This document shows positions 10,216 to 58,800 of a DNA stretch of 64,000 nucleotides, piece by piece. Below the pieces are notes generated by a model. The model made no database searches, was not told the DNA's origin, and worked only from the letters and a program-made list of their open reading frames with translations. Source of the stretch: Antedon mediterranea (Eukaryota > Animalia > Echinodermata). The DNA is taken from positions 22,989,175-23,053,174 of the forward strand of contig NC_092677.1 in assembly GCF_964355755.1 (NCBI RefSeq), read 5' to 3'. The translations under genes were made by a program, and so were the position numbers. The first letter of the stretch is position 1. The number at the start of each line of letters is the position of its first letter.

Positions 10216-13200
10216 TTAATGAACAACAACTTCTCCTTTAGCCAGATCTTGCAGAAGAGGGTACATTTCAAGATCAGTTTCGAGGTCATAGTCAATGGCA
10301 TAAACTGTCTTTTGTTTGTTTGGATGTTCTTTTTCAATTCTTATAACTGTACCGCTATACCACCTACTTTCCTTGTCAACTTTAAATAAGTGCTCAATTC
10401 TTTTGCCCACAACTAAATGAGGATTTTGGATAAAGTCATTTAAGTTTTTCTTTGAGCTTTCAGCACCCCGCTTTTGTCTTTCATGGTTTATTCTTTCTCC
10501 AAGTTCTCTCTTTTGTTTTTCAAACTCTTCTCTCTTTCGTCGATGTTTGTGTATTTGAGGCCGGTGTTACTTTCTTCTTCTACTGGATTTGTCATGGAAT
10601 TCATAGTAATGATAGTTTTTATGTGTTCCAACAATTGTGAATTGCTAAACTGAATTGAATGTGAACTCAACTGAAAATATTCCTTGCTGGGAGCTTTGCA
10701 TTTTAGCATTTTCTGCATAAACTGTAGCTGGTTATACAAAGCACGCTTTACTACAGCACGTCCTTGTGATTGCAGTTCTTGGTATTTGTTTTCTGCCATT
10801 GAAACTGATGACCATACACCACCAAGATCTGCAATGTCATTAACAAGCGCAATGGTTTGGTTCCTTTGTTTTTTTTTCTTTTTCACATTTTTCCTTTTGT
10901 TTTGCTTGTAATAATGACCATCTCTCTGCCTTTATTTTTTTCATTCTATTTCTGTATCTTTCCAGTATTTCACTAGAATGTGCACGTGCTTGGGCCATGT
11001 ACTTTGCTTTTGTTTCAGCATCCAGACTGTCAAGCCACGATGGTGTCCCATTGTTGACCCACATCATTAATGTTTCAAGAGTCATGGTCCTGGCAGCAGG
11101 CTTAATGCAAATCAAAAGGTCCAATTGAGCAAAATCTCTTTCAGAAATGACGTTTGTTGTTGGTACATTTGCAAATGAAGCTGACGTTTCTTCATCTACA
11201 TTCCAATACTTACCCCCTGGGAGCTGGTCTTGGCACTGCCGTTCGAGAATCAGCAACATTGCGCATGATGCTATTTCCAATGCCTGTATACACATTGCCT
11301 CACTATCAGCATCAGTTTCCTCAAACAGCTTCTTGGATATATCATCTTGTAGATTTAAATGATCACTAATCGCATCACCATGAAGGAGCGATGTTCCATC
11401 CTGCTTCCATTGCATAAGCTTTTGTTGCAGTTTGTGCAGAAGAGCATTGGCTGATAAGATATTGTCAGCTGACTGTATTGCTTTCCAAAGAGGTTCAGTG
11501 ATACACTTATAAATTATTCCAAGTGCCCGTAATTCTGCAGTGTATATTGTTTCCGTTATATCTTCCTTTACTGCTAAAAGGAGCTGATTTGGATCTGGCA
11601 AAAATGAAACAAAATTTGCTATATGAGTGCGATGAAAATAAGTGGCTGCCGCCCCTTCAAACAGAATATTTGTTCGGTTGCCTATATAGTTAACAATGTG
11701 GTTTTTCACACCAAATTCATGTTCCAAGTATGTTGTGAAAGCATCTTCAACACCAGATTTATCCGAGCCTCGATGATTAAAGGCTTTGCTTGTCGTACGA
11801 ACTAACCTTGCGACAGCCGATTCAGATGTTATTATGGTATGGGTATTTTTCCCTGATGTAGAAATTGATTCAAGGGATTTAAGTACCTTATTTATTTCAT
11901 CGGCAAAGTTGATGAAGGGGTGCATTTTACAATGAAAGCAACCAAAGGATTTTGTTGCCTCTTTCACTTCTTCCGAACAATTATTCCAATTTTGTACAAC
12001 TGACGGCAAAAGATTTTCACGAATTAACTGAATTCGTTCGCTAAATTGTGGCATACCAGGTCCTTGATCGCTCATTGTACTTTTAATAGTGCACAGCAAT
12101 TCATCATATATTGTTGTTTCATCTTTCATTTCAGATTTTGACAGCGTAGAAGCTAACTCATGCAGACGATCAGTGAAGGCATCTACAGTGCTTTCAACAT
12201 TGCCCTTTGCCATCTGCATAAGTCCCATTGTACGTGATGAGCCATCAGGAAGAGTAACTTGATAATAGTTCCATTATGGTCTCTCTTATCTCATCTGTGT
12301 ATCGTCCATCCTTAAAAGTGACGATATCTTTGTCTCGAAACAGCGAAACCAAGCCTTCCAAATCATAATTCTTTTTTTGCAAGGTTTCAATCCTTGACTG
12401 CATATACTGAAGTTCTTTATCACATAATGCATGGTCAAAACAGGACTCCTTTTTTTTGTAGTTCACTCTCTTTATAATCTTTGTCTTTTCATTTCTTTCT
12501 TTTACAAATCTATCTTTTAGATTTGATTTTGCTTGTACTGTAGCATTTAAATCTTTCCTGGTATCATCAAGTTCTTTTTGCAAGTCTTCTATTGTTTGCT
12601 GTAACTTCTCATTTTGCAATTTTGAGTGTTTTTCTGCACTTACTAATTCTGTTATTTTAGTATTTCTACGAGCCATCTTCCTGTTTATATTTCTGGTATC
12701 ATATTTTGATAGTTTTTGTTTTATGATACTGTATTTCTCTTGAATTGCAAGTAGCTCTGTTGTTGTTTTCTGATAATTTGCTTTATATTTTTTTTTTTTT
12801 TTTACTAAAGGGGTCAAACTTTTGGGTCATTTCATCAAGTTCCTTTAAAATCTTGTCTTGCTTTTTGCTGAGTTCATAGACTTCAGATTGAAGTTTCTGG
12901 TTATCTTCTTCGGCATATTGACGTGCTGATGTCTGAGCAGCCAATTCATTTTTCACGGTTGAAACAACTTCTGTTGCTAAGTTTAACTTCTTTCTAGTAT
13001 CCCTTAGTTCTTTGTTTTTTTCAATTAGCTCTTTTCTCATTTTCTTCTTGCGTGGTGTATCTGGAAGCATGTCTTCTCTTTTTCTTGCAATTTTGAATGC
13101 AGAACCCAAGAAGTCTGTCATTGATTCTTGTTTTGTTGCTTTGTTTTTATTTTTTTTCCTGTTTGTTTCAAGAATGCGCCAGATAGTAGAAATTGTTGAG

Positions 13201-13583
13201 TTGAAATTAACATCAGTTCGTCCAACTAATTTCAAGATTGTTTTAGCAAGATCTTTGAGGCTGTAATTCAGGTGTCCAACAAGATATGAATGTAGTTCAA
13301 TAACCAAACCATTGTTTACCGAATTAAGGAGTGGAAAGGTTCTTCCATCTGTGGAGAAGCTATCTTTGTTTAAACCTGCAACTGAACAGTACCTTCCAAT
13401 CTCTATAAGAAAATAATAGTTAGAATAATTTATAATTGTTCACAATGTTATTGTTAATTAAATGAATTTAATTGTCATTATCAATGTAATTTAATTGAAT
13501 GGCATTAAGAAAAAATAAAATATTTACTAACCATTGGTGGGTTTGCTACAGGATGGAACAGAATCTTCTGGTGGATCAGCCAT
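10216..13583 (-). pseudogene. Decayed hAT-like DDE transposase with coiled coil and C-terminal Spindlin-like Tudor domain
   Basis: Exon 13583-13532, intron, long exon from 13402. Motifs TMSDQ, CKMH, GNRTNILF, PTTNVISERDFAQLD; frameshifts near A-runs (~12795, ~10870, ~10510) and an apparent internal deletion at ~12260. Element termini not found. Confidence 0.72.
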
Positions 13584-15026
13584 TGATTAAAAAACCTACG
13601 GAAACATATTAATTAATCATCATAATTTATTTGAAATCAAATAAATAGCAATGTATATTGCAATAATAATTAAGAAGTAAAAGCCAAATAGACAGCAACT
13701 ACAACTAATATTAACATTACAATAGTATCTATTGGTAATGTTTTATCCTAGTTAGGTTAGGCCCTGCTTGGCTGGGCCTTCCTAATTCACGGAAATACGA
13801 CGCGAAAAAACGTCATATATTCGCCGAGAGTAATAGATGGACTTCGTGAAAAACAATGCTTTTTTTAAATAATTTACGTGAGTCTAACAAACATAGATCA
13901 GCAATGCCTAGTAGTGCTGGATATATATGTCAAATTAATTATAAAAATAACTATTATTACTTGCAAATATCGCTAAAAATAAGAATTTACGAAAAGTCTA
14001 GGCTCAGCGAAAAAGGTAAATAAAGCCAATACCATTTTCATCGTGGGTAGCCTAACGGAAGAAAACGGAAACATGTTTTTGTTTCCACCGTATTGTTTGT
14101 CTATTATTAATACATTGGAATTCGAAATTAATACAAAAGTATTTTATAATATATTTCATGAAAAAAAATCAAATGAATTATCAATAATTCGTCGAACGAA
14201 ACTGGTTACCCCTATACGGAAATGGACTATCCCAGTATCATTTTCGCAAACACGAGGCTGAAATATGGTCTCGCCGCAAAAAACAGCATCTTATAAAATT
14301 CGCTCTAGCATTTCTATTTATCAATATAAAATTATAAAAACTAAACAGAAAGAATCCAAAATAATCAATGTATATATACTTACGTGTGAAATATGCGTGC
14401 TTTATAAGAAAATCTATCTGAAAATATGACGTAAACTTTTTACTTTAACTTTTCACGGTCGACCATCGCTTGGATTTAATATTTCACTTCGGAAACAATT
14501 CTCCTATTATACAACATAATCTTCGGAAGCTTTCGGAAGTTATTTAACCAATCACAACAGTGCTAGCGGCGACGAAAAATACCGAGTAAAACAAGACAAA
14601 AATAACGAATTCGGAAAATATGCTCCACATGGGGAACGCAGCGGTTTACCATTGCGAAGATAGGTCACGCTGTGTAATGTAATACGATCGCGATTCAGAG
14701 GACATCGCAGCGAAGGAATTTGTCACGTGACTGAAAGCCCTAATTAAATTAGTTTTATTTAAAAGAGCTTAGAAAACTATTTAAAATGAGGGGTTACCCA
14801 TGGTAGCTATAAACACAAAAAAATTAGTGTCTCACAGGTCTTTATAATGCATGAATCATTTTAATACAAAAATTATGTAAATCGGACCAGTATTAGCGGA
14901 GATATTATAATATAATGACATTTGTTGGAAGCAAATTCCTTTTATTTTTATGTAGTCCGATATAACACACAGACATTAACAGATTCAAGTCAACAATATG
15001 GAACTTTATTCACTACTATATACAAC

Positions 15027-15046: not shown

Positions 15047-15384
15047 ATACAACTATATACAAGAGAGAGTTTTAAGGCTGAGAGCTATCTTATATCAGGG
15101 TGTTCGCTAGTACAATGTAATTGAAACTCTGCCACATGAATAGATGAGTCTGACTATATGCAATGTGTTGACCCATGGTTGGCCTTGTGCAAGCCACCCT
15201 GTAAGCTCATTAAGTCATTAAGGTAAACATTGGGATTTTAATGAGTACAGAGGAGCCTTGATAGGACCAATTCCACAAACAAGTTAATAAATTATGGGTC
15301 TATAATACAATTCCTTCTCAACCTTAATTTATTTATTTTCTTAGTATTTAATCTCTCAGTTTTCTTAAATTTTTTTTTTTGTAA

Positions 15385-18300
15385 TTGGTTATCCGCAACG
15401 AAGTTGCAGGATAACCTCTTGTGATTGTACGAGATCAACATCATCTTTTTCTTGATCTTCTTTCTTTCTGTATGATTTTTGTGGAACGCTTTTCTCTAAA
15501 ACTTGTAAACATAACATTTTGTAACTTTCTCAACATATCGTCATGCACATGAAGATGTGCTGCGAAGCTTTTCATGACGTTTACAATTGCGCAACGTGAC
15601 TTACGCGTGATTTAACGATTTCCTCGTATTTAACATAGGTCGAAAACCAAATAACATTTCAAATTGAAACTTTCCAAAAGTTTAATTTATATCATGCGCT
15701 AACTTTATGTTGAAAAAAAATTGCGTGTTTTACACAAAGTTACGCGCGCACGCGCATTTAAAATTTCAAAATGCGCAAAATTAATTTCTAATCAACTTTC
15801 TACGCGTTTCATGTCGTTTTAAGCATGTAAAAAATTCCCACGCGTGCGCAAATTTTTACGTGTGCGGTGCGCACGTAGCATTGAAAACATATTTTTTTCG
15901 CGTGATTTATGTTTTTCCAGCCTTTTCTAGTAATTTTATCAAATTTTAAACAATTTCGACTTAAAGTTACGTCATACGAGCACGTCGAATTGGACAATTT
16001 GCGCGTGTTTTTGATGAAAAAGTTCAAAATTCCGTTAAAAATATGCCTTTTTTTAAACAGTCGTAATTTCTAAACTACACGGTCAACTTTTTGTGGATGA
16101 CATATTCTGGAAGTTGATGAGTTGTAGATATCGGATCAGGTATTAATATGGCTAACCGGACATTGTGATGTCATCGTATGGCCACACGAATATAAAATTT
16201 AGGATTTTTGTATCTTTCGTCATAGGTCATCACATTGAATAGAGCGCCTCTCCACTTATTCGTTTTCCATTTTCACCCCGATTTTGATATTGTCTAGGTC
16301 AATCAACTATCTTTCGCATGAGTTAAAAATATTTTAATTTTTTTGACGTCATCATGCCTAAAAATTTAAATCACGTGTGGCATTAATTTCATCTTTACAG
16401 TAAATTTTAATCTGTTATAGCTCGTAAGAATAAAATGTGATAATCACGATTAAAACTTTTTCTGGAAGCTATTGAATTTTAGATACGAAATTATGTAAAA
16501 ATGTTGCCAATCGGATGTTGTGACGTCATCATATGGCCAGTTATATAAAAAAGGTCGTATTTTCATCTTTTGCGTCATAATTCATTACATTTAAACGAGC
16601 GCGCATCAATATTTCACGTATTCAAATTTCTTCTACATGCTAATACGTTGTTGCTGAGATAATTTCCTTTCGGAATTGCTAACTTCGCGTTTCATTTTAA
16701 AACCGTCAACACGTTAAAAATTGCAATAAATAGCGGGTCCCGTAATTTCACCTATTCTATGTATTTCACTGTATGTGATATGGATACAGATTATACTGTG
16801 TATACTATATATGAATTTAAATAATAAAATTCAGCAACATATCATATTCTTCAGTTCAGGTCATAATGCCAACGTGAACACTTCCTTTTGTCCTCAACCT
16901 ATCCCCTTAATGTTAATGTTGCACCACTTGCGCGGCGGATAACCAAACTCGTCAAAGTGACGAGTTACATGTCTAGTTTTTCATCTTCTTTCTTTCTGTA
17001 TGATTTTTGTGTAACGCTTTTCTCTAAAACTTGCAAACATAACATTTTGTTAACTATGTTAACATTTTGACATTCACGTAACGTCGTCAAGCGAAGCTTT
17101 TCATGATGTTTACAATTGCGCAACGCGACGTACGCGCGATTTAACGATTTTCTCGTATTTAACATATGTCGAAAACCAAACAACATTTTAAAATGAAACT
17201 TTGCAAAAGTTTAATTTATATCATGCGCTAACTGTCTGTTGAAAAAAAATTGCGTGTTTTACACAAAGTTACGCGCGCACGCGCATTTAAAATTTCAAAA
17301 TGCGCAAAATTAATTTCTAATCAACTTTCTACGCGTTTCATGTCGTTTTGAGCATGTCAAAAATTCCCACGCGTGCGCACATTTTTACGTGTACGGTGCG
17401 CACGTAGCATTGAAAACGTATTTTTTTCGCGTGATTTATGTTTTTTCAGCCTTTTCTAGTAATTTTACCAAATTTTAAACAATTTCGACTTAAAGATACG
17501 TCATACGAGCACGTCGAATTGGACAATTTGCGCGCGTTTTTTATGAAAAGGTTAAAAAATTCGTTTAAAATATGCCTTTTTTTAAACAGTCGTAATTTCT
17601 AAACTAGACGGTCAAATTTTTGTGGATGACATATTCTGGAAGTAGATGAGTTGTAGATATCGGATCAGGTATTAATATGGGTAACCGGACATTATGACGT
17701 CATCGTATGGCCACGCAAACATAAAATTTAGGATTTTTGTATCTTTCGTCATAGCTCATCACATTGAATAGAGCGCATCTCCACTTATCCGTTTTCCATT
17801 TTCACCCCGATTTTGATATTGTCTAGGTCAATCAAGTATCTTTCGCATGAGTTAAAAATATTTTAATTTTTTTGACGTCATCGTGCCTAAAAATTTAAAT
17901 CACGTGTGGCATTAATTTCATCTTTACAGTAAATTTTAATCTGTTATAGCTCGTAAGAATAAAATGTGATAATCACGATTAAAACTTTGTCTGGAAGCTA
18001 TTGGATTGTAGATACGAAATTATGTAAAAATTTTGCCAATCGGATGTTGTGACGTCATCATATGGCCAGTTAAATAAAAAAGGTCGTATTTTCATCTTTT
18101 GCGTCATAATTCATTACATTTAAAAGAGCGCGCATCAATATTTCACGTATTCAAATTTCTTCTACACGCTAATACGTTGTTGCTGAGATAATTTCCTTTC
18201 GGAATTGCTACCTTCGCGTTTCATTTTAAAACCGTCAACATGTTAAAAAATTGCAATAAATAGCGGGTCCCGTAATTTCTCCTATTCTACACTGTATGTG

Positions 18301-18505
18301 ATATGGATACAGATTATACTGTGTATACTATATATGAATTTAAATAATAAAATTCAGCAATAACAACATATCATATTCTTCAGTTCAGGTCATAATGCCA
18401 ACGTGAACACTTCCTTTTGTCCTCAACCTATCCCCTTAATGTTAATGTTGCACCACTTGCGCGGCGGATAACCAAACTCGTCAAAGTGACGAGTTACATG
18501 TCTAG
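15385..18505 (+). mobile_element. Tandem dimer of a ~1.53-kb non-autonomous Helitron2/Helentron (HINE)-like element
   Basis: 5' hairpin head GGTTATCCGC...GGATAACC, TC microsatellite, 3' GCGGATAAC sub-TIR, hairpin AACTCGTCAAAGTGACGAGTT, CTAG-TTT end at 16976 and 18505; no TSD, T-rich flanks. Confidence 0.8.
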
Positions 18506-18950
18506 TTTTTTCTTATGTCTAATTTCTTGTTTTGTATATATTTAAGTGTGTATGTATTATTTTTCACTGTAAACTTGTTGCACATCTCACTGAGACTGTG
18601 CCTCTGATTTAGGCCCCGTTTCTGCTGCCAAAAATATACCGTATATATACGGTATATTTTATATACGGTATATTTTTTGGCAGCAGAAATGGGTCTCATA
18701 AAAAATATACCGTAAATATTTGCGGTATATATACCGCATAAATATCCCCATCGTTTGTGGATATTATACGGTATATTCCAAAATATACCGTATATTTCGT
18801 TCCCCATTTCTGCTGCACTAAAAATATACCGTAAATGTGACCCGACTCGTGACACGAGGTCAAAAACTAACAGAGCGCGACGCGTTTGTTTTGGTTTTTC
18901 TGCTGCATTGAAAGTTGAAACACACGTGTAAAAGCAAGCAACAGATCAAA

Positions 18951-21314
18951 ATGTCACTGTGGACCGAACAAATCACTATTTTTGCAATTCAATTGTGGGG
19001 GGAAGCGAAGGTTGGGGGGAGACTGCATGGCAACAGAAGAGATACTGAGATTTATAAAAGCATCTCAAACAAAATCAAAGCAGAATTTGCGCTAGACTTA
19101 ACGCCAAAGCAAGTCAACAGCAAACTAAAAATTGTACGAAAACAGTACAATTTGGCCAAAGACAATAACAGCAAGTCCGGGAGAGAACGAGTTTCTTGTC
19201 CCCACTACGATTTGCTCGACGGCATTTTGGGGGATCGGGCAATTGCTGCACCTCCCCATTTAATGGATAGGGAGGTAAACCTTGGACTACTTGACGGTAA
19301 GTAAACTATATTTTCGATCAAGTACATGCTAGCTCCCTTATTTAGTATAGTAATGTCTGTACGAATAAAAACGGATTGCAGCTAGGCCTAGGAAGGTAGG
19401 GCTAGATAGCCTAAGGAAAATTTAGTTCAATTTTAGTAATAATAAGGTTGAATACAAAGCTTTGATTATATTTTTGTTATAATAAATTAAAGGATGGGCT
19501 GGGTTATTATTTTATTACAAAATATGTTTATTATTTGACTATTAAATAATTTTCTTACGGTTTTTTCAATCCATTTTATTTATTTCAACCGGTAGCTAGC
19601 ACCCTTGCTAGGCCCTTTGTGGGTTAAATAACATTTATGCCATTACAAATACACAGTATAAAACAACACAGGTACAAGCATCATTGTTCTAATGTAAACA
19701 AATTGCTTTTTAAAAATATTTTTATAGGAGCTGAGGAAGCAGAACAAGTAGATGAAGAACAGGATAATGAAAGTATATGTAAGCACTTAATTTTATTTTA
19801 AAGCTTTACACCAAAATTAATTGTATTTAATCAAACCTTTAGGGAGGTCTATGATTATACCATATAATATACTTCTAAACTGCAATTTCTTATGTTTTAT
19901 ACCCATGGTAGGACCAATTTTATTTTTAAATGAAGCAAAAATATTCAGGGAGTACTCCCAAAACAATGACCACTAGTAGTAGTTGCCTGTTTAAACCAGG
20001 GAGTTGTTATTAACAACTCCCTGTTTAAACTCAACAGCTGGAATTAATTAGTTAATTAACATATACAATAGCTCTTTTGATCTATTAAGCTTAATTCTTT
20101 AATCTTCTTAACTTTAATTGATTGTTTATTTCCTACTTCCTTTTGTTATGAATTCCCACCATAATTTGGAATACTGTTAATTATTAAATAATGCTTTCTA
20201 ATCTTGTTCCTGATTTAAAATATCATTTTATTAAATTTGTTTTTCAAATAATAAAGTGACTGCCGACGACAGCGTAGTTGACGCTGAATTAGACGATGAT
20301 CCAAATGTTGTGGAAAATGCAAATGTTGTGGAAAATGCAAATGTGGAAAATGCTGCTGTCCAACAAAGGCAACCAGGTTAGTTAATTTGAACTATAAAAT
20401 AGAAATGGTGTATTTAGTGGTCCCATACAAATTTACCTTATAAATCCACTTATACTGTACTTGCAATGACATCAAATACTTAGATGATGGCAATCCGTTT
20501 AAAAACCGGTAAGAACAAGCGATGTTAATAATATACATAAAAACTGATTGTATGAGTGTTAATGTCAATAAAGATAAAGAATGACTAGCTGATTTTGTAA
20601 TTTGTACATTTATAATGATTATTAATATTTATAAATATTTATACCCCTATAGCAGATGAACAGCCTCAACGAAAGAGGAGAAAAACGAAGCTGGAAGAAT
20701 CATTTAGCGTTCTGTCTAAAGAACTTGTGAAGCATGATAAAGAGGCTGAAGAGAGAATGCAGAGGCAATTTGAAAGGGCTAATCACCAGCATAGGGAGTG
20801 GCTAGAGGCAATGACAAGAGAAGCGGAGCGTAACCGGCAAGAAGAAAGAGAAAGAGATCATCAAAGGATGATGCAAATTATGCAATTGTTTGCACCACAG
20901 CAGCAGTACATGCAGACACATACACAGCCTCATCACCAACCACAACAACCATACCATACGCAAAGAACAAGCACACAAAGCCGTCTGTCATCAGACTTCA
21001 ACACACCAACATATGCACGAGCACAAGCACATCCTCGCAGCAATACACATCCCCACACAATCACACATCCACAAGCAAGAACACCCACACACACACTCAC
21101 ACACCCACCTGCAAGAACACCCAGTCACCCACTTGCAAGAACGCACACACACACACTCACACACCCACCTGCAAGAACACCCAGTCACCCACTTGCAAGA
21201 ACGCACACACCCACCCACCAACATGTAAGAACACAGGCCATAACAACCCCACAAGCATACACACAGGCTCAAGTCCACACAGATGTACAAGAGCCGGAAT
21301 ACATTAATCTTTAA
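18951..21314 (+). CDS. Harbinger Myb/SANT-like (trihelix) DNA-binding protein, 4 exons, ~392 aa, intact
   Basis: Exons 18951-19296, 19728-19778, 20257-20376, 20653-21314 with GT-AG phase-1 introns; WTEQI...W...SGRERVSCPHYDLLDGILG motif, acidic linker, RKRRKTK, coiled coil, H/P/T-rich tail with a 60-bp repeat. Confidence 0.85.
19997..20023. other. 27-bp hairpin with 7-bp TSD (putative transposon footprint)
   Basis: TTTAAAC-CAGGGAGTTGTTA-T-TAACAACTCCCTG-TTTAAAC. Confidence 0.75.
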
Positions 21315-22039
21315 ATCTTTAGCAACACTACCTCCAAGCAGCTAATAATGTAAATGGCAACATTTTTTTCAATATTTTTTATAGTTCTATGGTGCGTATA
21401 CAAGTTTAGCAATATATAACACAAATTAGGTGTTTCTTTGACAGCAAATAACATGTAAATAAAAACATTTCTTATTTTTAACCTTTTATATTATATGTGT
21501 GTAATTATATATTGCATAGCATTTCGCTAATAAATATTTTTATGGTTCTATGGTGCTTATACAACAAAAGAGGTCTTTCTTTGACAGCAAATAACTTGTA
21601 AATATAAACATTTCTTATTTTTAACTTTTTATATTATACGCGTGTAGTTTTAGTTGTACAGTATATTGCATTGACAAGCATTTACATTTCGTAAATCAGC
21701 AAATAACATGTGCATTGTAAATAATAAAACATTTCTTTTTCAATTCTTAATAATATTGTGTTACGTTATATATTTAATTTTATACAGTTTTAGCTATACC
21801 AATACCAAAAAAACTAATATGTAGTTGTGTATTATTAGTGTTAATGTACTCAACAAAATACAATGGAAAATAATTACATCATAATGTGCAATACAGCATT
21901 TCTAGCTTGCCTTGTTTTTTATAACTCATTTTTACTTTACATATTTAATGACCAATATGATATTTGAATAAAATTTATGTTAGTGTTTGTATTTTCAGTT
22001 TCAATGTATTATTATCTATCTAAAGTTCTTGTAAATTGC

Positions 22040-24058: not shown

Positions 24059-24365
24059 TGTTTTGTTTTTGTCAGCATGTAGGCAAAAACCTCACTACAC
24101 GAGGTCAATCCATACTTCCGTCTCACGAAATGCATTTTGGGTAATGAAAGCCAACTTTTTTACAACCCACCCACGAAGTATGTGCAGCGGAAACGGTGCA
24201 CGAATTTCATATACGGTATATATACGGTATATATATACGGTATATTTATACGGTATATTTTGGGTTGGCAGCAGAAACGGGCCCTTACAGTATAAAATAT
24301 AGCATTTTTAGCCCATTTATTTACTCTATACATATGTGTATTTTCATTATTAAATATAATGTCAC

Positions 24366-29200: not shown

Positions 29201-29245
29201 ATTTATTACACTAAAAAAAAACCATCAGGGGCTACAATTAAAAAA

Positions 29246-32391: not shown

Positions 32392-32439
32392 AAAAATAAA
32401 TTATAAATATTCAGTCTTCAGTCAGAAAGAATAGCTGTA

Positions 32440-36110: not shown

Positions 36111-36199
36111 TGAATTAACCAACATTCTTAGTGTTACAATTGACCCCTTGGAAAACATTTTTTTTGGGTTTTTTTTGCACAAAACGATTTATATGCAGT

Positions 36200-39870: not shown

Positions 39871-39989
39871 TAATTGCAATAATTTCACTGTTCCAACTAG
39901 TTGTAAAAACAAACGCAAAATAAAAATAGCGTGGGTACGGCAAAAAAGCCCTGATAAAAAATGGCCTCTGACCCGATTGTTTACCACAA

Positions 39990-46489: not shown

Positions 46490-46530
46490 CACTTAACTTA
46501 AGGTACATTTAATGTACCTTAAGTTAAGTG
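46490..46530. other. 41-bp perfect hairpin, CAC...GTG ends, flanked by TATTT
   Basis: TATTT-CACTTAACTTAAGGTACATT-T-AATGTACCTTAAGTTAAGTG-TATTT. Confidence 0.7.
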
Positions 46531-46781
46531 TATTTGTACATCGGTGCTAGAATGTTTTAGGCCCTACTTCGTGAGAAAGTCGAGTGACAAGGGATATCAC
46601 ATGGTATTGTGATATCAGTACTGCGATACTGTATGTCACATGGTGCTTTCACCGGCGGCCGCCGCCGAGAGATGTAAGCACGTGTTTTGTTACTGCCATG
46701 TCTCTCTTTCGAATCGTTTTCCTATTTCCTAGTGCGCTATGAAGTCTTATTTCCGGGCAACTAGAGGTGTCTTACTAATGA

Positions 46782-46807
46782 CATGGAGTAAAGTTCTTTA
46801 CTCCATG
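46782..46807. other. 26-bp hairpin with 7-bp TSD (putative transposon footprint)
   Basis: CTAATGA-CATGGAGTAAAG-TT-CTTTACTCCATG-CTAATGA; sister repeat units have a single CTGATGA. Confidence 0.82.
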
Positions 46808-47014
46808 CTAATGAGTAGGCCTAGTTTTATTTCATCGGGACTTGCCCCCGATGTTTGTATTTGAACGCAAAAAAATGTTTTTTATCGCATATGTTTACCC
46901 GCCGGCGGAAAAAAAAAGTAGGCTACGATCGTTTTAATGTTTGCTAACGCGCTATGAGGTGTCGTTTCCGGCAAACTACAGTTGACTACTGATGAGTAGG
47001 CATATTTTTTTTTT

Positions 47015-47828
47015 CGCTGTGGCTAAAGATACGGTACCGTATTCTAACTTCTGTTTACTAAAGATACGGTAAAATTGCATTACGTCATAACCAGCCAATG
47101 GGGTGCTGGTACGTGTGTGACGTCATCGTATAAGGACTTTGTGGATTTTTTTCATATCGCGAAAACCATGGAGGTATGGCGAAAACAGTGATCAACCGCA
47201 TTTTCTTTATGCTTTATTTATCGCTATTATCGCCGTCGTGTGTGACAAAAACTAAATGTAGCCTACGTCTGTTATTATTATTGAAAAGCCATGTTGATTT
47301 TAATTCTAGAATAGAGAAAACCGTTTTAAAAGAGGCCTAGGCCTACTTACTACGTACTATGTATAACCTCATTATATGAGTTTGTTTGTGAAGGGAAAGC
47401 GATTCCAGGCTGTGGCCAGCTGCATATGTGTGCGCTGATTTCTGTGACTCGTCAGCCCTGGGGCTACACTGCTGTCTAAATCATAGTATTTAAGGGCTCC
47501 TTTATTGTCCGCATTTGCTTGTTGTTTATGGTCACCATTGTAAACAAAGTTTAAAAAAAATATAGGCCTAAATAGGCCATTTGGAATAAAAATAAAACCC
47601 TCATCTGCAGCCCAGCACACACATCCACACAGCCTGGCGCCGCCGATAGGAATTCTCTACATATATACAACCAACAACAGACGCGATATGAAAACAAAAT
47701 CCCAAGTCCTTATACGATGACGTCACACACGTACCAGCACCCCATTGGCTGATTATGACGTAATGCAATTTTACCGTACCTTTAGTAAACAGAAGTTAGA
47801 ATACGGTACCGTATCTTTAGCCACGGCG
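47015..47828. mobile_element. MITE with ~125-bp TIRs inserted in a T-run
   Basis: CGC(T/C)GTGGCTAAAGATACGGTACCGTATTCTAAC...CGTATAAGGACTT mirrored at ~47705-47828; poly-T both sides so TSD length is unresolved. Confidence 0.85.
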
Positions 47829-48204
47829 TTTTTTTTTTCATATATCGCGTACAGTATGTTTACCTGCGGAAAAGTAGGCTCAATCGGGCTGTTTGCTAGC
47901 GCGCTATGAAGTGTCCTTTCCGGCCAACTACAGAGTTGTCCTACTGATGAGTAGCATTTTTTTATTTCATCGGGGAATTCCCCTTGACGTTCGTAATGAA
48001 CGCAAAAAATGTTTCTTATCGCGTATGTTTACCGGCGGAAAAAGCAGGCTACGATCGTGCGGTTTGCTAGCGCGCTATGAAGTGTCTTTCCGGCCAACTA
48101 CAGAGTTGTCCTACTCATGAGTAGGCCTAGTTTTATTTCATCGGGGAATTCCCCTTGACGTTCGTATTAAACGCAAAAACATTTTTTTATCGCGTTTTTT
48201 TTTA

Positions 48205-48354
48205 TCTGTTTTCACATTTAAAACTAAACTCAAAACTCATCTTTTCAGAGAAGCATAATCGCACGCTACTACTTGCACTGATCTTGGAAAACACAGCGCT
48301 TTGAAACCTTTGTCTCTTGCGCTTTATAAATGTTATTTATTATTATTATTATTA
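48205..48354 (+). mobile_element. L2-group LINE 3' tail
   Basis: FKTKLKTHLFREA-stop, AGCGCTTTG...GCGCTTTATAAAT, (TAT)n; interrupts one tandem unit. Confidence 0.75.
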
Positions 48355-50129
48355 TGTTTACTGGCGGAAAAAGTGTGCTACGATGGTTTTACTGTTTGCT
48401 AGTGCGCTATAAAGTTTCGTTTCCGGCCAACTAGAGTTGTCCTACTGATGAGTAGGCTAATAGATTAGGCCTATTTTTTTCATTGGGGCTTCCCCCTGAC
48501 GTTCGTAATTAACGCAAAAAAATGTTTCTTCGCGTATGTTTACCGGCTGAAAAAGTTGGCTACGATCGTTTTGTTGTTTGCTAGCGCGCTATAAGTGTTA
48601 TTTCCGGCCAAACAAGAGGCGTCATTCAACATAAATGTTATGTGTGCGAGAGTACCATTTCCGGCCATCTAGGGTGTAAATTACCAAAAATCGCTTCGCC
48701 ACAGCCCCAACCATGGTGGGGCTGTGGCTCAAGTACTTAGTGTCCCAATGCCCCCCCCCCCCCCTCGGGGGCAACCGTGACGCTTGATGTGAATCCTGGG
48801 GAGAACACTGCGATATCGATGTTCATTTAAAAAAATTTAGTACTACTGCACAATTTAAATTTTTTGAAATATCATAAAGAGCTAAAATGTTTACCAAAAT
48901 AACCAAATTGGCAAATTTATTTAATTTCTTAAGGTATAAAAAACATTAAATTCAAGAGCTAAAAAGGTTGGATTACAATCATAAACTGAAAAATACACAC
49001 TAAAAAACAAATGTTTATAATAAATAGTACAGAGAAAACCTAAAAGACTATTTTATTAACATTGTACCCCAGTAGCCAAATTTGTTGCCTTTAAGACGAA
49101 CAAATCTGAAAACTAAAGAAAATCCCCAGTGAACTGACCTTTTTATTATGATTTCATACTCTTCCAATACCCGTCTTTCAAATATCCATGCCCGTAAAGT
49201 ACATTCTTCGACTCTAAGAAAATTCTCAGCATGGTTTACAATACATCCACCAACTTTCCCCAAGCAATTTTGCTACCCCACTAAGCGATATTGAGTACAT
49301 TTCTCACTTTCTTCTTCCCTTCTCTTCTATAAATCTTTGAAATGTTTCTTGCTGAATTGGGGGATATGAATGGTCACTTCAGGATCCGAAATCCTAGAAA
49401 CATTCAGGTTCTCTTTAATTTTGGTCTATAATTTGGTCTACAAAAGTTAGGCGTCAGTTTCATATCCTTTGTTTACTATCTCTGACTTGCACCGCCATTC
49501 ATTATATATGTCACTCCATCCTAAATAATGGACTTTCAAAAATAAGTGATGGTGTCTTTCTTTATAGTTTATTTTGAAGCATTTACATAGTTATGCAAGA
49601 AGTTGAATGTACTGTTGTAATATAACAATATCAATTTGTATTGCAAAAACATAAACCTCTTCTGTGTGAATGTTACATGCTCACACCAACTCCTTAGCAA
49701 CGATATTGTAAAGCTGTAATTTGGCACATTCAACAACAAATAAAGTACATTCATTTTTATCAAGTTATTGACAAATGAACACAACCCACTTTTTCAACCT
49801 TTAAAACTCAATTATGCCAGTAGTAGTATTGCAAAGATTCTATTGTTTTTGGCTGATTAATAGTTATAAACAATCATTAATTTGATTAGAAACACAAATA
49901 CAGTAATTGGCACTTTCAAATTTATATTTTAACTTTACACATAAATAAATTAGAAAATGGTAAAATAAACACATTTAAAAATTGCACTGTTGAGGTCTAC
50001 TGTGCCTACAGAATTCTCGGATACTCAGAAATAAATATTGTTTTCAAGCATCGTGCAGGCCTGCTGGTTTAATTATTGGAGGGGGACTAGATGGTTGTGT
50101 TGACCTGAGTAAATATGTATTTTCTTCAC

Positions 50130-50610
50130 TGTAAAGATAGTTCTTTTTATGAAACAATACCAGGTATATCTGCATCAAACATGAAGTGTTGGTACGACTT
50201 GATGCCAGGAAACTTTCGGTAATGTCTGGACAGATGACTTACCCAGTCATAAACACCGGATTCATTTCCAACAAGCTGTGCTCGGTTGATTTAAGCAGTG
50301 TTTGATTTGTCTACAACGTCAATAATGTCTTGCAAGGAAGAGACAAATGTTTTTCTGTATGTTTGCTTAAGAAGTCCGAAGCACCAATCGGGACCAGATT
50401 TTGTATGTCCAACTGGTAATAATGAATACTTGATCGTCTTGTAGACCATTCTCAACTCTCCATGCCAAGTACTGTATTAACGCATTATTTTTGTTTTGGC
50501 CGGAACAATTCATTGTCAGCATGTTATTCACCAACCCTGTAATGTTAAAAAAAGTGATGCAGATAACTGATTACCATGTTTTCTCCCATACCACAGCTCA
50601 CACAGTATCA
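50130..50610 (-). pseudogene. Sola-like transposase fragment
   Basis: NCSGQNKNNALIQYLAWR, PVGHTKSGPDWCFGLLKQTY, YDWV...GIKSYQHF. Confidence 0.65.
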
Positions 50611-51419: not shown

Positions 51420-51750
51420 AGACCGGGAAGGCATGGTACACTTTTGCCGAATTACAATACTGCTTCACAACGACAGTTTCTGGATGAGATGCATTAAATT
51501 CAAAGTGCTGAACTGGTTTTATTCCTGATAATACTTTAAAATGTGGCTTGAGAAAAAACTCCCAGTCATAATACTTTATAATATTGTTCACCCGACTCAT
51601 TTCATACTAATTCCACTTTATTACTATTTTCTTGAGTGCTGTTTCTGACAGCCTTTGCAATATCTTCTAAACATGAAATATCTATTCGATGCAGCTCCCT
51701 TGTCCAAAACACCAATCCGGTGAAAATTTTGCGTGTCCTGCTAACACGAA
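51420..51750 (-). pseudogene. Sola-like transposase fragment
   Basis: GHAKFSPDWCFG; DISCLEDIAKAV; YDWEFFL...GIKPVQHFEF. Confidence 0.6.
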
Positions 51751-53099
51751 TGACATTACGATTGATGTGTGGAGGCCTGTAATTTCTTAATCCAGTCAGC
51801 GTTCCCTCTGAGTAGTGCCCAGAGGAAAAAACAGACATTGAAATGTCTGAATCCAGTACCTCAGAGGAGCTTGAGCATTAAAATTTAATGTTTGTCTTAT
51901 CTGTCGAATAATCGCATGATTGTTTTTTGGCACGTCCAGCATAAGTCTGTCTTTGGCTTGTTCACCAACACATAGGGCAGAAGATTCTTCCGCAGCTTCT
52001 TAAACGTAGATGATGATGATGATTCTTCTGGTTCAACACAATTAATGGATCATGATTTATTCTTATTGGTCTTATATTTTATTGTAAATGTTACACTACA
52101 CTATACAACTAGAGTATTTAGAAATCTACATAAATTCATATAAAGTACATACATTCGTATTAAAACCTATAAGGGCCAGAGGCACACCACCTCTGTATTA
52201 AATGGATAAATGTTTTGCTAAAACTTATACAAGAATGATTTACTATGTCTACAATTATAGTATTGATACAAGTACGGAACATATGGCATACATTTATTGT
52301 AATACAATTAATTCATCATAATCCTATATTATATTCCTATAACCCCAGCATGTCGTTTTAATCAATCAATAAATTTAATAATAGTTGGTGCCATAACTGC
52401 TTTCTCTGGTAAGTCTTTATTTTCAGGTCATGACCTAGTTTGAGAATCCTGATATAGCTCCAAAAAAAAAAAAATTGAAGGATTTCCTACTAATAAACGG
52501 ACCACCGAGTCCCACACCCTAGTTTAGTTTACCGACAGATAAGAAGTTCTCCGGTTCTCTCGTCCTGTCTACTGTAGGTCTTAACATGTACACTAAGTTA
52601 ATTGATTATTTCTAGGTAAAGAAGGATTGTGTTTGATTATGACAGGTCAGGTTTGCCAACGGTGATATTCCGTCGGTTTCATGTACAATGTAAATAGATG
52701 AGAAAAGTAAGGAGATTAAATTCTCATGAGCCGTTATGGCTCTTTTATTCATAAACTTACCAACTAAGAAATACAAGATGGATGGTCCAAAAGTAATTTA
52801 TGTCTATCTCGTTCCATCTTCAAGTGAGTGAGAGAGGTCCCTGGATAAGTTGTTTACCACAATTTAGTGGTTAGTTAAATTAAACGCAGAGTAAAATAGC
52901 CAATCAGAATTTTGATTTGGGCTATACCAATTTCTGTTACAATATTTATAAATTGTTGTACAAGTTATACTACATTATTTACCCCTTCCTTAGCCAGTAC
53001 TCTGGTTGTAAATTGCAACATAATTTCTCAAGGATTGCAAGGTTCCTAGTGACTGCAATAACAGTCTTTGTCATTGATGCTGAAGAGATCACTTGCAAC

Positions 53100-53340
53100 T
53101 AAAGATTGAAGAGTTGAGTGGTTGATCCTTTTGTTGTTTAGTCTGATATTGACGACATGAATCACTATGAATAAGCGTCTCGGTCATTCCAGGCCAATGT
53201 AGGATTTCACAGGCTCTTCTCAAAAAACTTTTAAAGCCCATATGATGAATGAAACCTGTTTCAAACTTACAGAGATTACAACTCTTTCTCTGCAACAGAC
53301 TATGCCATTCTTAATGGATAGTTCATCTCTGAAGCTATAG
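53100..53340 (-). pseudogene. Gypsy/Ty3 integrase zinc-binding fragment
   Basis: YSFRDELSIKNGIV, HMG....RRACEILHWPGM...CRQYQ. Confidence 0.65.
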
Positions 53341-54169
53341 TCATCAGGCCTAGGCTAGGTTTACTACCTATATTAAGAGAGGGAGGGTTGTCAATGACAA
53401 TGTCAACAACGAAACACTCTTATCTTCTGCACTTGATGCAGGCAAAGTGAGCAGCAACTCTACAACTGAATGTACATTCTGATGGCATTCATTATTCTTT
53501 CAACTTTGGGATATCTACTACTGTATAAAAATATTATGCCCGTGATATCATGTTCATGATAGCAAAAAACCCAATGGAAGTGATTTTCATATACTTGGTT
53601 ATGACATGCCATATACTTGCAGTTGTCATTTTGTCTCTGAACATAGCCTTCCTCTATATTCTTTATAATCATTCCTTTGCTCAATTTTAGTTTGTAGCTA
53701 CTTTTTTTGTATATTTCCAGTTTTTTATAGCACTATAAATCAGGTTTATGTTTTAATGTCATGAATATGTACAGTAGGTATGACACTTTGAGCCCGACAA
53801 ATGTTGTCAGATGAAACTAGATGCTACCAGCATTGTGCCCTTGCTTTTCTTCTCGACGATCATCATGCTGTTGCATTGGTGCAACAGATCCACTGTGTCT
53901 CTGCAGCGTGCATAGGATCAGTGGGCCACAAACATTCTTTTTTCTTTTGATGCTTATAAAAAGTGATTAGAGGCGCTTGATCCTCCTTTCATCAGCAATT
54001 TTGCTGTTTTGTTTAGTTATTGATTTCCTTCTGAATTCTAGTATAGCTTTGTGTTCTTCTTTTCTCTTTCTGCATTCTTTAATGCCTTGATGTTATTAGT
54101 GTTCGGTTTACTTGTCAATATTGTTCCTTGAGTTTATATTGACATACGACCCATTTTTGTATATTTCAG

Positions 54170-54357
54170 GGCATAATTTGGAAGAGATTCGTGTTAGAGC
54201 TTTGCAAAATGTGATTGGCAAGCTGGAACATAATGTTATATCTCTTAATGATTTGGTTCAAGAGCGTCATCTGATAACTCGTTTACTGGAGTGGTTTAAT
54301 TTCCCTTCCTGTCCCATGAAAGTTGAGGCATTGAAGTTAATTCTAAAGCTAGTTAAG
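54170..54357 (+). CDS. RTTN: Rotatin exon 2
   Basis: [63 protein letters not shown] matches the RTTN N-terminal domain (LLEWFNFP); ttcag|...AAG|gta. Confidence 0.95.
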
Positions 54358-55234
54358 GTAATCAAAATTGCTTTAATTGTGTTTTTAATGCCAATCAGTG
54401 TGTTTTTTTAATAAGTTTGTACTTTACTCAACTTTGTCCAAAGTTATTAACTTTCTATATCAACACATCACAAAAGAAAAATGCAATTTATTTACATAAT
54501 CAGTTTTCCCAATCCTTTGTATCTGACAATACCTAAATAGTCCACACATTCTGTATGCAATCTTTCTTTGAACAATGCTATGACTTATTCTGTTTTATTA
54601 TCCCAAGATGTCTTCACCTATGACAGATTCATCAATAGTAAATTAACTGTTTTGCCATTTAAATTGCTTATTGATTGATTTATATTTTAGAGAAGATCAA
54701 TATATAGTTACTATATATAAATAATATATTGTGAAAATTGTCTACATCTCCTGAATTTGTTTATTGGTATTAAACAACTATTCACTAATTGATCACATTA
54801 TCACAACAAAACCAGAAATCAGAAACCAAGCAGAAAATTCTGTAGAGCATGGAACTTGATTTGGCTACAATCTTGAATTCTTCTAGATGAACACATAGAA
54901 TAGATCATGTTATCGGCAATACAAAACATAAGGTACATTAAAAAAAAGAAGCAAAAACAAACAAAAACAAGATTGAATTATGGAAAAGTGGAAGTGTCTG
55001 TATCTTTAATCATCAAATTTAATAAACGGACAGAAAATTAAGGAAAATGAACCAACATTCAGGCCTGGATGTCATGACAATTGCCAAGAGTTCATCAGGA
55101 TTATCTTATTACCTCAAGATACGATGGAAAATGATAAAAAAACTTTACTACACTTGCAGTTTTGCACATACTATGCAGTTGGTTATGATATACCAAAAGC
55201 TGATTTGTCAAAAGAAATAAAGTTCTGCCATACC

Positions 55235-55695
55235 TGAAGAACCAAACATCAGTTAAAGAGAACCAAGCATCAGTTAAAGAGAACCAAACATCAGTTAATA
55301 GGAACCAAACATTGGATATTAGGAGAATCAAACATTGGTTAAAGAGAACCAAACATTGGTTAAAGAGAATCAAACATTGGTTAAAGAGAACCAAACATCA
55401 GTTAAAGAGAATCAAACATTGGTTAAAGAGAACCAAACATCAGTTAAAGAGAACCAAACATCAGTTAAAGAGAACCAAACATCAGTTAAAGAGAACCAAA
55501 CATCAGTTAAAGAGAACCAAACATCAGTTAAAGAGAACCAAACATCAGTTAAAGAGAACCAAACATCAGTTAAAGAGAACCAAACATCAGTTAAAGAGAA
55601 CCAAACATCAGTTAAAGAGAACCAAACATCAGTTAAAGAGAACCAAACATCAGTTAAAGAGAACCAAACATCAGTTAAAGAGAACCAAACATCAG
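55235..55695. repeat. 21-bp minisatellite (AAAGAGAACCAAACATCAGTT), ~22 copies, RTTN intron 2
   Basis: Direct inspection; variant units at the 5' side, perfect units at the 3' side. Confidence 0.97.
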
Positions 55696-55957
55696 AGCAA
55701 CGAAGGAGAGAAAGAACTCTCACAATGGTACCAAAATTGACCATTGCTGCAGCATCTTTGATAGCTATAACTCTATTGCAACTTCCACAATTTAATTTTT
55801 GTTTTTATGGGTAGGTCGCTTGGACATTTCGATATTTATTTAATCTTACTTACTTTAAATCCCTAATATATTCTTTTAATTGAGGGCGTCATGATAACTA
55901 TCAACAATTACTTTCTTGATCACTGTCGACAGTTTCACAGATCAGATAAAAGCATTT

Positions 55958-56235
55958 GAATGTAATGTAATGTTCGATTTATAAAGCACTTATACAATCA
56001 AAAGATTGTCCCAAAGCGCTGAGAGAAAAAACAGAAAGAAAGTACAAAGAAAAAAGATGGGTTTTTAAGAGTTTCTTGAAAACTATGATAGAGGATGCAT
56101 TTTTAATAGGATCAGGAAGATTGTTCCACAGTTTAGGAGCTGCAACTGCAAAGGCTCGATCACCATAGGTCTTAAGGTGGCTGGATGGAACAAAAAGTGC
56201 AGATGGATTAGTGGTTGACCTAAAGAGATCTAACA
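55958..56235 (-). mobile_element. L2-group LINE 3' end
   Basis: TYGDRAFAVAAPKLWNNLP...FKKLLKTHLF; AGCGCTTTG...TTTATAAAT and (CATTA)n tail. Confidence 0.82.
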
Positions 56236-57309
56236 GATCATTTTAATAAAAATGTGTATGTGTCGGAACTGGAAAGCAAGCAAAATCACCACAGGAGATG
56301 TAGAACAATTTTTACATGGTTGAAAATTACAGCCAACCACCACAGATTCAAACCAATTTTTAAGTTTTAAGTTACATTTATCATAAAGTACATTCATCTT
56401 TTCCTAAGTAGTAAATAGAACTATTCAGGATTAAATGGTAAATCAGTATTTTAGATTTATTGAACATGATGAGTCTTGTCATATTGTGAGATAACTTTCA
56501 AAATAGATTGTATTATTTAGTTACTGGTACTGGTATATTCTTATTTACCTATACCATTATTCTATTCATTTCCATTCTCTTAACCCACTTGACATTTTTT
56601 GAATTAATACATTTATACTAATTTCTATCTTTATTATCCATAAAAACAATCAACATCTTCCTCATAATTAAAATCGCCTTTCATCCTGCGACATGATGCT
56701 TTCCACTTTTTTTATGCCATTTTACCCTGTTATTGGCAGGATGGTCTTTGTCTTTAGTTTTCAATTTCTTTTTTGACTTTAGAATTAAATAAATGTTTAT
56801 TTTAGTCTTGGTCGTCTTCATATATTTATACTATATTTCCATTGTAAATTTGGTCATTTTAACCTTTGTTAAGATTGTTATTTGTAGCAAAAAGTGGATG
56901 AAACATGACCATGTTGGTTTTAAGTCTTTGCAATTTGCCATCTTGTCTTTTTTTAGTTATTAAAAAAACTCCTGCCACAGTATACCAGAATATTTGTATG
57001 GCCATCAGGCCATAAGTTTTCGTATTATACCACACCTGGTTGATGATACTATGTTTGCTCGAACATTGTCACACTTTCATTTTTCAGTTTGCTCAATTAT
57101 TGTTATATGGTATGGTATTTGAACCTTCAAGTACTTTTTCACGCAAGTGATATGAAGTTCCAAGAGTGTTATGTAATTGGAACTTGACTTGCGATCAACT
57201 GAATTTGTTGGTCAACTAAATCCACACCCCTCATGAATTTGGTATACAATTCAATGCTGCATGGTTTCCATCCTTTTTGTTTTGTTTCGTCTTCTTGATA
57301 ACATCTGGT

Positions 57310-57585
57310 GTGCCCCAACGATCACAGCGCAGAGTGCCACAATTTCCCGTTTTGTTGAGCAGTGCCAAATTAAAAAACGCCTTAACTGTTGCCCAAGAGT
57401 ATTTGGTGTGCTCCCAAGGTCTTCGAAAAGCCTCCTCATATGATCGCCAATTCTGTGTGTTGTTTCGCATCATGTTTTGTGTTTGTTTGGTGTAAGTGAA
57501 GATATCTTGCATATCTCCAGGATTGTAGCTAATATGAATAGTGGCAAAGTCGTAAAACGTCGTAGACCATTCATGTTCGGACAAA
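57310..57585 (-). pseudogene. Possible DIRS-type gag fragment
   Basis: DIFTY...NWRSYEEAFRR...W pattern only. Confidence 0.35.
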
Positions 57586-57639
57586 ACTTTTTCTTACTTG
57601 GTACTTACTTACTTGGTCCTTCTTTAAAATGGTTCCAAT

Positions 57640-58800
57640 TCGCTTCCACAGATCTGGATAAGGGTGAGGAATGCATGAACTCGTGATTCATCCATATCTT
57701 TCCATCTAAGAATAGTTCTAGGTACTTTAATAGAGTGCGATGTTCTGTTTTTAATCTCAGCAAGGACCGTGGAATGGTCACTAATTCCAGAGCATGCTTG
57801 GACGTTTTGAATCAAATTTGGTCGAGTTGTAAAAAGAAGGTCCAAAATGTTCTCCGTTCCACTAGTTGGGTCTTTCCTAGTCGGAATAGTGACATCATCT
57901 GGGCACCAGTGCATACCTGGTATATTGAAGTTGCCCCTAAGACGATAAACAGTGAATTAATACTGTTTTGTAATTTAAGGAAGCTACTGTATCTTCCAGT
58001 CCATCTAAAGACTCGGGTTTATATGTATCAGGAGCTCGATAGTATACCCCAACAATTATTTTATATCTCCTTTGGGCTGGAATGACAGTTGACACCAGGG
58101 TAATTCACATCCATCTACACTCAGGTCGTTTCTTTCAATTGATGGTATACCATTGTTAATTGCGATAAGAACACCACCACCTTGTGTTTCCCTATCTCGA
58201 TAAACTGTAAAATTTGAGGGAAACACTAAAAAAATAAATAATAATAATAATGCTACAGCAGTTCATAATGGCTACTTTAATGCAATTGTTTTTAGCTTTA
58301 CGTTGTGGTGGTTCATGCCTTGTGTGTTTCTGCTTATGACCAGGTAATTTTTTAGATGTGGGTGTTTGGTCAGGAAACTTAGGTACAAAAGTTCTATGTC
58401 TGTTGGCTTTTACTCACAAATTTTGGTTAATGTTATTTTTTGTTTGAGGGCTTGATGACATTCTCGGGTTAAAATCGACTTCACTGTCACTATCAGAATT
58501 TCCAAATATTGATAGGTCATCGAGTTTTGCGTAATGGTCTTGTCAAGGGAGAAAACGAACTAGCAAAATTTATTAAATTGAAATTTTGTAACTGTCTGTT
58601 GTGGATCCACGCTGTACATCCGTCACATTCCATTGCACGGTCCTTGTTTTTAACAGCATATCGACAGATTCCGCATGGCAATATTGGTTTCCTACCCCTT
58701 CTCACACGACCCGGGTTTTTTTCAATAAGTGGCGTGTTGATATCTGGTGTAATGTTTGGTGGTATGTTGGAGAACTGAGTGTTCAGTTCTTCGTCATTCG
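57640..58800 (-). mobile_element. Decayed non-LTR retrotransposon 5' region (PHD finger + AP endonuclease)
   Basis: PCGICRYAV...ECDGCTAWIH; FTVYRDRETQGGGVLIAI; NILDLLFTT...GISDHSTV. Confidence 0.78.

Follow-up and report, generated by a model that had tools for sequence, protein, structure and literature searches.

In the slug Arion vulgaris, clusters of PIWI-interacting RNAs (piRNAs) are uni-strand across dense antisense fragments of transposable elements (TEs) (PMC11615739), and in the snail Lymnaea stagnalis they are enriched in young Kolobok and hAT copies (PMC6128900). The piC-DoGs of mouse, human and hamster use host-gene promoters, read through beyond the last exon and carry retroelements (PMC11615739), and in flam-like clusters of 227-1085 kb the strand bias is driven by Gypsy long terminal repeat (LTR) elements (PMC10643416). 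Here we describe a 64,000-nucleotide (nt) stretch of the feather star Antedon mediterranea (NC_092677.1, positions 22,989,175 to 23,053,174; the window), animal DNA of 35% guanine plus cytosine, in which TE coding pieces showed a strong antisense polarity in the giant first intron of the rotatin gene, RTTN.

The RTTN pile resembles the gastropod clusters in its dense antisense TE fragments (slug) and in its Kolobok and hAT content (snail). However, those clusters are defined by sequenced piRNAs and young elements, whereas the RTTN pile, a candidate by its layout, sits in a first intron and is mostly decayed. As in a piC-DoG, transcription from the RTTN promoter would continue as a long RNA across antisense TE fragments and leave the coding mRNA intact; in contrast to a piC-DoG, the pile consists of DNA transposons between exons 1 and 2, and would need donor skipping or intronic termination. 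Membership of the piC-DoG class was ruled out because the pile is not behind the last exon. Most fragments lie opposite to the inferred transcript, as in flamenco, but flamenco is its own transcription unit with follicle-cell expression, whereas the RTTN pile is ~50 kb and intronic. The term flamenco-like, used in an earlier note made from the sequence, did not survive the comparison, with Gypsy represented by one 219-nt piece among ~23 elements in a 53-kb intron of a protein-coding gene.

The pile also shares its intronic position and its orientation against the host gene with the generic intronic bias. That bias concerns LTR elements as well as long interspersed nuclear elements (LINEs), whereas at least 90% of the RTTN coding pieces are antisense and most are DNA transposons. 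Intronic DNA transposons showed no significant orientation bias in cichlids (PMC4353498), are the least biased class in human, where L1 has a skew of -0.3 or ~65% antisense (PMC1391917), and were excluded from a further study of intronic bias (PMC3088655). The cichlid and human literature thus agrees with the earlier note, which had set this mostly DNA-transposon pile apart from the usual bias. In open-access titles and abstracts we found no description of an intronic piRNA cluster, although supplementary cluster tables could hold cases, and in titles and abstract starts none of an echinoderm or crinoid piRNA cluster.

The RTTN gene frame was obtained with a query of 62 residues against 1.84 billion representative sequences, which returned a protein (P0002) identical at 62/62 residues. 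P0002 has 2209 amino acids (aa), is named in its source 'rotatin-like isoform X2 [Antedon mediterranea]', and maps onto ten plus-strand exons in the window. In this public protein model the peptide of 860-920 is joined directly to that of 54170-54358, and a similar short N-terminal stretch ahead of the conserved KLGH is present in RTTN homologues (16 shown). The mapping bore out the intron at 921-54169 that the earlier note had drawn. Intron 1 is ~100 times as long as the median of the eight other RTTN introns within the window, of which intron 2 measures 5,165 nt and the following seven 168-640 nt. A possible upstream exon was seen at 720-741 (ATG, seven codons, then CAG before the donor GTAATC), with an AG at 850-860 just ahead of the ATG at 860; these may give the N-terminus of another RTTN isoform.

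The strand of the TE coding pieces was tallied by a Pfam scan, blind to strand, of 366 stop-to-stop open reading frames (ORFs) of at least 50 aa (182 plus, 184 minus), with TE-type families counted at E<=0.05. The scan returned 11 separate pieces, and 11/11 were on the minus strand: Tudor/Spin at 10219, DDE_Tnp_4 at 27003, Mutator at 27520, zf-C17orf113 at 35602, DUF7869 at 38814, 50294 and 51421, THAP at 41574, P2RX7_C at 43691-44413, Integrase_H2C2 at 53092 and PHD at 58520. Seven of these matches are weak (E 0.001-0.015). A twelfth piece, Myb at 39586-39856, matched the Harbinger Myb of the window by tblastn (E 1.6e-8) and is also minus, so that 12/12 pieces (11 by Pfam and one by internal tblastn) are antisense to RTTN. 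The one-sided p for this tally is 2.4e-4 at 50% expected antisense and 0.006 at 65%, the rate to which the human L1 skew of -0.3 corresponds (PMC1391917). As a chance control, the non-TE, non-RTTN Pfam matches were 12 plus and 14 minus. The tally omits the complete Harbinger element (18611-24285), which was counted as neutral because its transposase is minus and its Myb gene plus. It also omits a DUF3504 match at 16968 (minus, E 0.022), which sits within a non-coding tandem repeat and was dropped as noise. A further Pfam scan of 263 ORFs of 40-49 aa showed no TE family, and neither did a Pfam scan of four regions translated through stops (24 frames) on either strand. The earlier note had held that nearly all TE coding pieces are antisense to RTTN and had called for an unbiased strand tally; the ratio found was not balanced, and the claim stood in both the objective count and the count by eye.

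By eye, we drew 27 minus-strand pieces in intron 1, which collapse to ~23 elements, plus three antisense pieces in intron 2; about 23 of 25 elements are antisense. In sense orientation we saw the Harbinger Myb gene, one or two tails of LINE type and a coding-like stretch at 28188-28382, for which no credible Pfam match was found. The earlier note had counted ~23 separate pieces, within 10216-58800, and allowed only two on the plus strand. Its total agrees with our ~23 antisense elements, but some of its pieces are probably parts of single elements. The pile begins at ~5745, not at 10216, and its final three pieces belong to intron 2. Its two plus-strand pieces (the Harbinger Myb and the L2 tail at 48319) were retained and joined by two candidates, the stretch at 28188-28382 and a weak tail at 45370.

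A codon-frame test with 3-mer-preserving shuffles was applied to 534 test windows that excluded the training regions; at z>3 it gave 17 minus and 4 plus windows, and 15 and 6 when the Tudor element was left out of the training. The mean codon shift was toward the minus strand in all three training models, by 0.20-0.29 (standard error 0.09-0.10). An earlier version with mononucleotide shuffles gave 45 minus and 13 plus of 805 windows; we preferred the 3-mer-preserving test because the mononucleotide version can be misled by A-runs.

We regard RTTN intron 1 as a candidate uni-strand piRNA-type trap that would be driven by the RTTN promoter via a non-canonical transcript and not via the excised intron, a reading for which we consider the balance of being right or wrong about even. 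The layout, a dense array of TE fragments most of which run against a single transcribed strand, as in a uni-strand piRNA cluster, would likely let RNA from the RTTN promoter act as a source of transposon-silencing small RNAs. In favour of the trap count the uniform orientation of the 12 pieces beside the even split of chance matches, the ~25% coding density, the length of intron 1, the unpolarised non-coding repeats, the AATAAA counts across the intron, the tolerated sense Myb gene, the lack of bias in cichlid DNA transposons and the gastropod parallels. Plus-strand transcription from this promoter, or from an intronic one, would yield a long RNA besides the spliced mRNA. The long RNA would bypass the exon-1 donor or terminate at an intronic polyadenylation (polyA) site, reach the cytoplasm and there give rise to small RNAs complementary to transposase, KolX-type, Myb, helicase and LINE messages. 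Selection would retain antisense insertions, deletion would trim their non-coding ends, and intron 1 would grow while rotatin splicing remained intact. More tentatively, the promoter of an essential gene could be shared with a first-intron piRNA cluster, splicing at the donor giving rotatin mRNA and reading on giving an antisense archive of ~ten superfamilies. It is conceivable, but somewhat doubtful, that such a cluster would represent a 'downstream-of-exon-1' type, aimed mainly at DNA transposons, in a crinoid.

Several points weigh against the piRNA-type trap, and the precursor is its weak link. The public gene model splices the TE pile out as an intron, and polarity extends into intron 2 (3/3 antisense). 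Antisense fragments trigger piRNAs when they are in exported, cytoplasmic transcripts (PMC13226689), hamster C12orf45 piRNAs come from exons and not from introns (PMC11615739), and planarian genic clusters carry fewer piRNAs on introns (bioRxiv 10.64898/2026.01.28.702291). Since these studies place piRNA production on exported exonic RNA, an intron that has been excised is unlikely to be the precursor, and we therefore assumed an alternative transcript; the suggestion of the earlier note that the pre-mRNA intron itself may be a small-RNA source is not supported by this literature. Mollusc piRNA clusters hold young elements (PMC6128900), and most pieces here are decayed, with stops and frameshifts. 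Against a generic antisense rate of 80% the tally loses significance (p = 0.07-0.10), the codon-frame test is weak with the RTTN exons alone as training (7 minus and 5 plus), and the window was chosen out of very many, a selection that inflates extreme tallies.

The non-coding repeats of the window showed no common orientation. Repeat pairs were opposite in four cases (including the tandem repeats at 15371 and 29240) and parallel in two, and L2-type non-coding tails were on the plus strand at 48319, 62982 and, weakly, 45370, and on the minus strand at 43796 and 55989. Because these repeats face both ways, the polarity follows coding content. A possible explanation toward which we do not lean is gene-trap selection, acting within a long first intron and giving small RNAs no role. 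It holds that acceptors and polyA sites of whole sense elements truncated the essential RTTN transcript, so that these elements were purged, while antisense copies stayed, decayed and were compacted; miniature inverted-repeat transposable elements (MITEs) and short interspersed nuclear elements (SINEs) are without such genes and would hence be unpolarised. Intronic LTR and LINE elements are generally biased toward antisense (PMC3088655, PMC1391917, PMC4353498), and the published figures of no bias for DNA transposons are probably mostly from non-coding rather than coding copies. Crinoid genomes can also be rich in DNA transposons, with 34.7% in the deep-sea feather star Glyptometra, whose introns average 2.7 kb (PMC13079724), and the intron 2 pieces of RTTN conform as well.

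RNA signals spoke on both sides. Within the 27 pieces, AATAAA occurred 19 times on the TE sense strands and 10 times on the other, and donor-like motifs 8 and 2 times, the direction that selection predicts, which counts against the piRNA-type trap. On the other hand, acceptor-like motifs within these pieces numbered 2 in TE sense and 17 in the kept, RTTN-strand orientation. Across intron 1, the RTTN strand had no deficit of AATAAA (97, and 100 on the opposite strand; ATTAAA 62 and 77), and reversing all 27 pieces would add 9 AATAAA to it. The only complete element retains a spliced, polyadenylatable sense Myb gene, which is thus tolerated, and a sense SINE with its tail is present in RTTN intron 8. 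Purging accounts for absences, but not for the coding density or the exceptional length of intron 1. The signal counts weaken polyA selection on the surviving pieces and are still compatible with selection on whole elements at insertion. For the generic selection against sense polyA and splice signals that the earlier note had raised as an alternative, the whole-intron AATAAA count and the Myb gene are unfavourable, and the donor-like and AATAAA counts within pieces favourable.

Purine transitions on the plus strand exceeded pyrimidine transitions in four runs, at 79/50 (p 0.004), 85/65, 79/61 and 58/48 (p 0.04-0.18), which are not independent and have paralogues mixed in. Such an excess is expected from germ-line plus-strand transcription. 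It is predicted by the piRNA-type trap and by gene-trap selection alike.

TE coding sequence amounts to 13,414 nt, ~25% of intron 1 (27 hand-drawn pieces), and 12/28 gaps between successive pieces are of 250 nt or less. Unrelated genes adjoin with 0-1 nt between the hand-set boundaries at 33020, 35600 and 35780, some within one open frame, and in patchwork 2 several joins fall within open frames and lack any intervening terminal sequence. A second study has contigs that cross 35595-36403, 38959-39922 and 41597-42117, so the joins are not assembly artefacts. The recurrence of the joins also counts against chance combined with non-independence (a handful of large insertions, duplication within the locus and the choice of window), which we consider very unlikely as the source of the polarity. 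Some pieces are indeed parts of one element or near-copies (35251-35498 and 40144-40390 are 94% identical) and very many windows were scanned, but ~23 elements remain after collapsing and in protein the three DUF7869 pieces share no more than 28-43% identity with one another.

The first 9 kb of intron 1, mostly MITEs, contain few polarised coding pieces. This would fit a nested plus-strand long non-coding unit with its own promoter, acting as small-RNA precursor or as the target of selection, with RTTN merely co-oriented; human piC-9 likewise overlaps CHD1L as an independent unit (PMC11615739). We consider a nested unit very improbable, as no start site or exon was identified in intron 1 and the RTTN promoter already explains the common strand.

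In a related organism that matched the exon-2 region at ~97.5%, one contig has 45571-45837 and 49010-49704 separated by just 176 letters. With its flanks so close in the relative, the 3-kb element with terminal inverted repeats (TIRs) in this interval is likely a recent addition, and intron 1 therefore still accepts insertions. Read cover in the related organism was little or none at 35.3-37.3 and 41.3-43.3 kb, from which we drew no inference. Eight sequencing runs matched 54050-64000 and none is listed as RNA; one run guessed to be RNA covers intron and exon evenly, as DNA does. Summed contig depths, which are not copy numbers, ranged from about single-copy to several-fold over the coding pieces and reached hundreds-fold over the MITE nest.

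If small RNAs bear out the piRNA-type trap, uni-strand clusters would have a third possible setting, a first intron, in addition to dedicated loci and to read-through downstream of genes. A crinoid studied for its development and regeneration would then have a named cluster candidate, and the requirement for exonic, exported piRNA precursors could be put to a sharp test. If the trap is false, selection alone can polarise transposase-coding DNA in long introns to at least 90%, and the locus would caution against calling clusters by layout.

Features of RTTN and of the TE pile in the window (strand relative to the window; presumed, label assigned by motif)
Feature	Position	Strand	Basis or remark
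RTTN coding exon 1	860-920	+	20 codons + 1 base; donor GTAAGT at 921; P0002 N-terminus
RTTN intron 1	921-54169	+	53,249 nt, GT..AG; houses TE pile
RTTN exon 2	54170-54358	+	PF14726 E 6.6e-19; P0002 mapping
RTTN exons 3-10	59524-64000	+	P0002 mapping
Harbinger/ISL2EU-type transposase, N-terminal piece	5745-5990	-	presumed from motif; ORF; codon z 3.1 (mononucleotide-shuffle test)
hAT-like DDE transposase with C-terminal Tudor/Spin domain	10219-13439	-	frameshifted; longest piece; 47 homologues
Non-coding tandem dimer, 1.5-kb unit	15371-18511		81% identical inverted copy at 29240-32333
Complete PIF/Harbinger element	18611-24285		TIRs; TTA each side
Harbinger Myb gene, four exons	18951-21314	+	PF13837 E 8e-12; four AATAAA downstream
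Harbinger transposase, broken	22043-24091	-	PF13359 E 2e-18
Patchwork 1	25160-28519	-	next five minus-strand pieces; hAT and BEN presumed
Tudor-transposase-like N-terminus	25160	-	pairwise match to Tudor transposase only, 26%, E 6e-4
hAT piece	26221-26956	-	presumed
Second Harbinger	27003-27364	-	DDE_Tnp_4 (Pfam)
Kolobok-like piece	27444-27951	-	superfamily presumed
BEN-like piece	28319-28519	-	presumed
Coding-like stretch, possible sense exception	28188-28382	+	codon z 5.1-6.1 in all three models; overlaps BEN-like piece
Patchwork 2	32479-37698	-	hAT pieces and the next six pieces
L2-type coding tail	32804-33020	-	presumed
Kolobok-like piece	35145-35600	-	superfamily presumed
hAT zinc finger	35602-35780	-	zf-C17orf113 (Pfam)
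Second Kolobok-like piece of patchwork 2	35781-36093	-	superfamily presumed
Helitron-like piece	36204-36778	-	presumed
EnSpm-like piece	37504-37698	-	presumed
Patchwork 3	38814-45717	-	next seven minus-strand rows
DUF7869 piece	38814-39368	-	Pfam; Sola-like presumed
Myb piece	39586-39856	-	tblastn E 1.6e-8
Kolobok-like piece	39900-40501	-	with THAP 41574-41780
hAT-like piece	42072-43085	-	patchwork 3
P2RX7_C piece	43691-44413	-	Pfam
L2-type non-coding tail	near 43796	-	patchwork 3
TE protein piece without name	45448-45717	-	patchwork 3
Weak L2-type tail, sense candidate	45370	+	weak
Non-autonomous TIR element	45838-48810		ends CAG..CTG; 7-nt flanking repeat; nested repeats inside
L2-type tail inside TIR element	48319	+	non-coding
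Second DUF7869 piece	50141-50570	-	Pfam
Third DUF7869 piece	51421-51999	-	Pfam
Gypsy integrase zinc-finger piece, 219 nt	53092-53310	-	Integrase_H2C2 (Pfam)
L2-type tail, intron 2	55982-56242	-	presumed
DIRS-like piece, intron 2	57234-57593	-	presumed
LINE endonuclease + PHD ORF1, intron 2	57627-58976	-	endonuclease presumed; PHD E 0.0017

The Tudor transposase had 47 homologues, several of them bivalve and two labelled Sedimenticola, the latter probably host contamination. A model built from 39 homologues reached a predicted local distance difference test score of 91.6, and its top five Foldseek rows were all Hermes hAT transposase, with weak scores (E 0.02-0.16, template modelling score 0.28-0.37). 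Atlas leads were all <0.9, with hAT clusters at 0.75-0.76; Pfam showed no transposase family, and the 47 homologues had no other match inside the window. The family, hAT-like with a Tudor/Spin tail, may be an under-described hAT branch. No terminal repeats were found in the flanks of the Tudor piece, the first DUF7869 piece and the P2RX7_C piece. The hAT in four parts at 32.5-34.5 kb is probably one element, and so, probably, are the THAP and the piece at 39.9-40.5 kb.

Presumed labels, assigned from motifs, are hAT-B/C, Helitron, EnSpm/BEN, DIRS-like, LINE endonuclease, L2 tail, Kolobok and Sola; Pfam, the PDB sequence search and Atlas gave no confirmation. The Helitron-like and endonuclease-like pieces returned nothing below E 0.8 in the PDB sequence search, the Helitron-like piece had no Atlas match, and Rfam and ARAGORN scans gave 0 matches.

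RNA through the tandem dimer and its inverted copy could form a ~3 kb imperfect double-stranded foldback. A MITE at 4680-5027 has a near-perfect inverted repeat of 156 nt (99%) with a 36-nt loop. Pieces of 2003-4483, in the 5' part of intron 1, recur in parallel at 6602-8244 and 24479-25012 (89-98%), as a MITE family or a local duplication. The sense SINE-like element of intron 8 (62640-63012, plus) looks by eye to have a tRNA-like head, which ARAGORN did not detect, and ends in an L2-type tail, and an 85% identical inverted piece of it is present at 59896-60041 in intron 3. Intron 2 also carries a 21-nt minisatellite of ~22 copies at 55238-55695, in which three frames are open.

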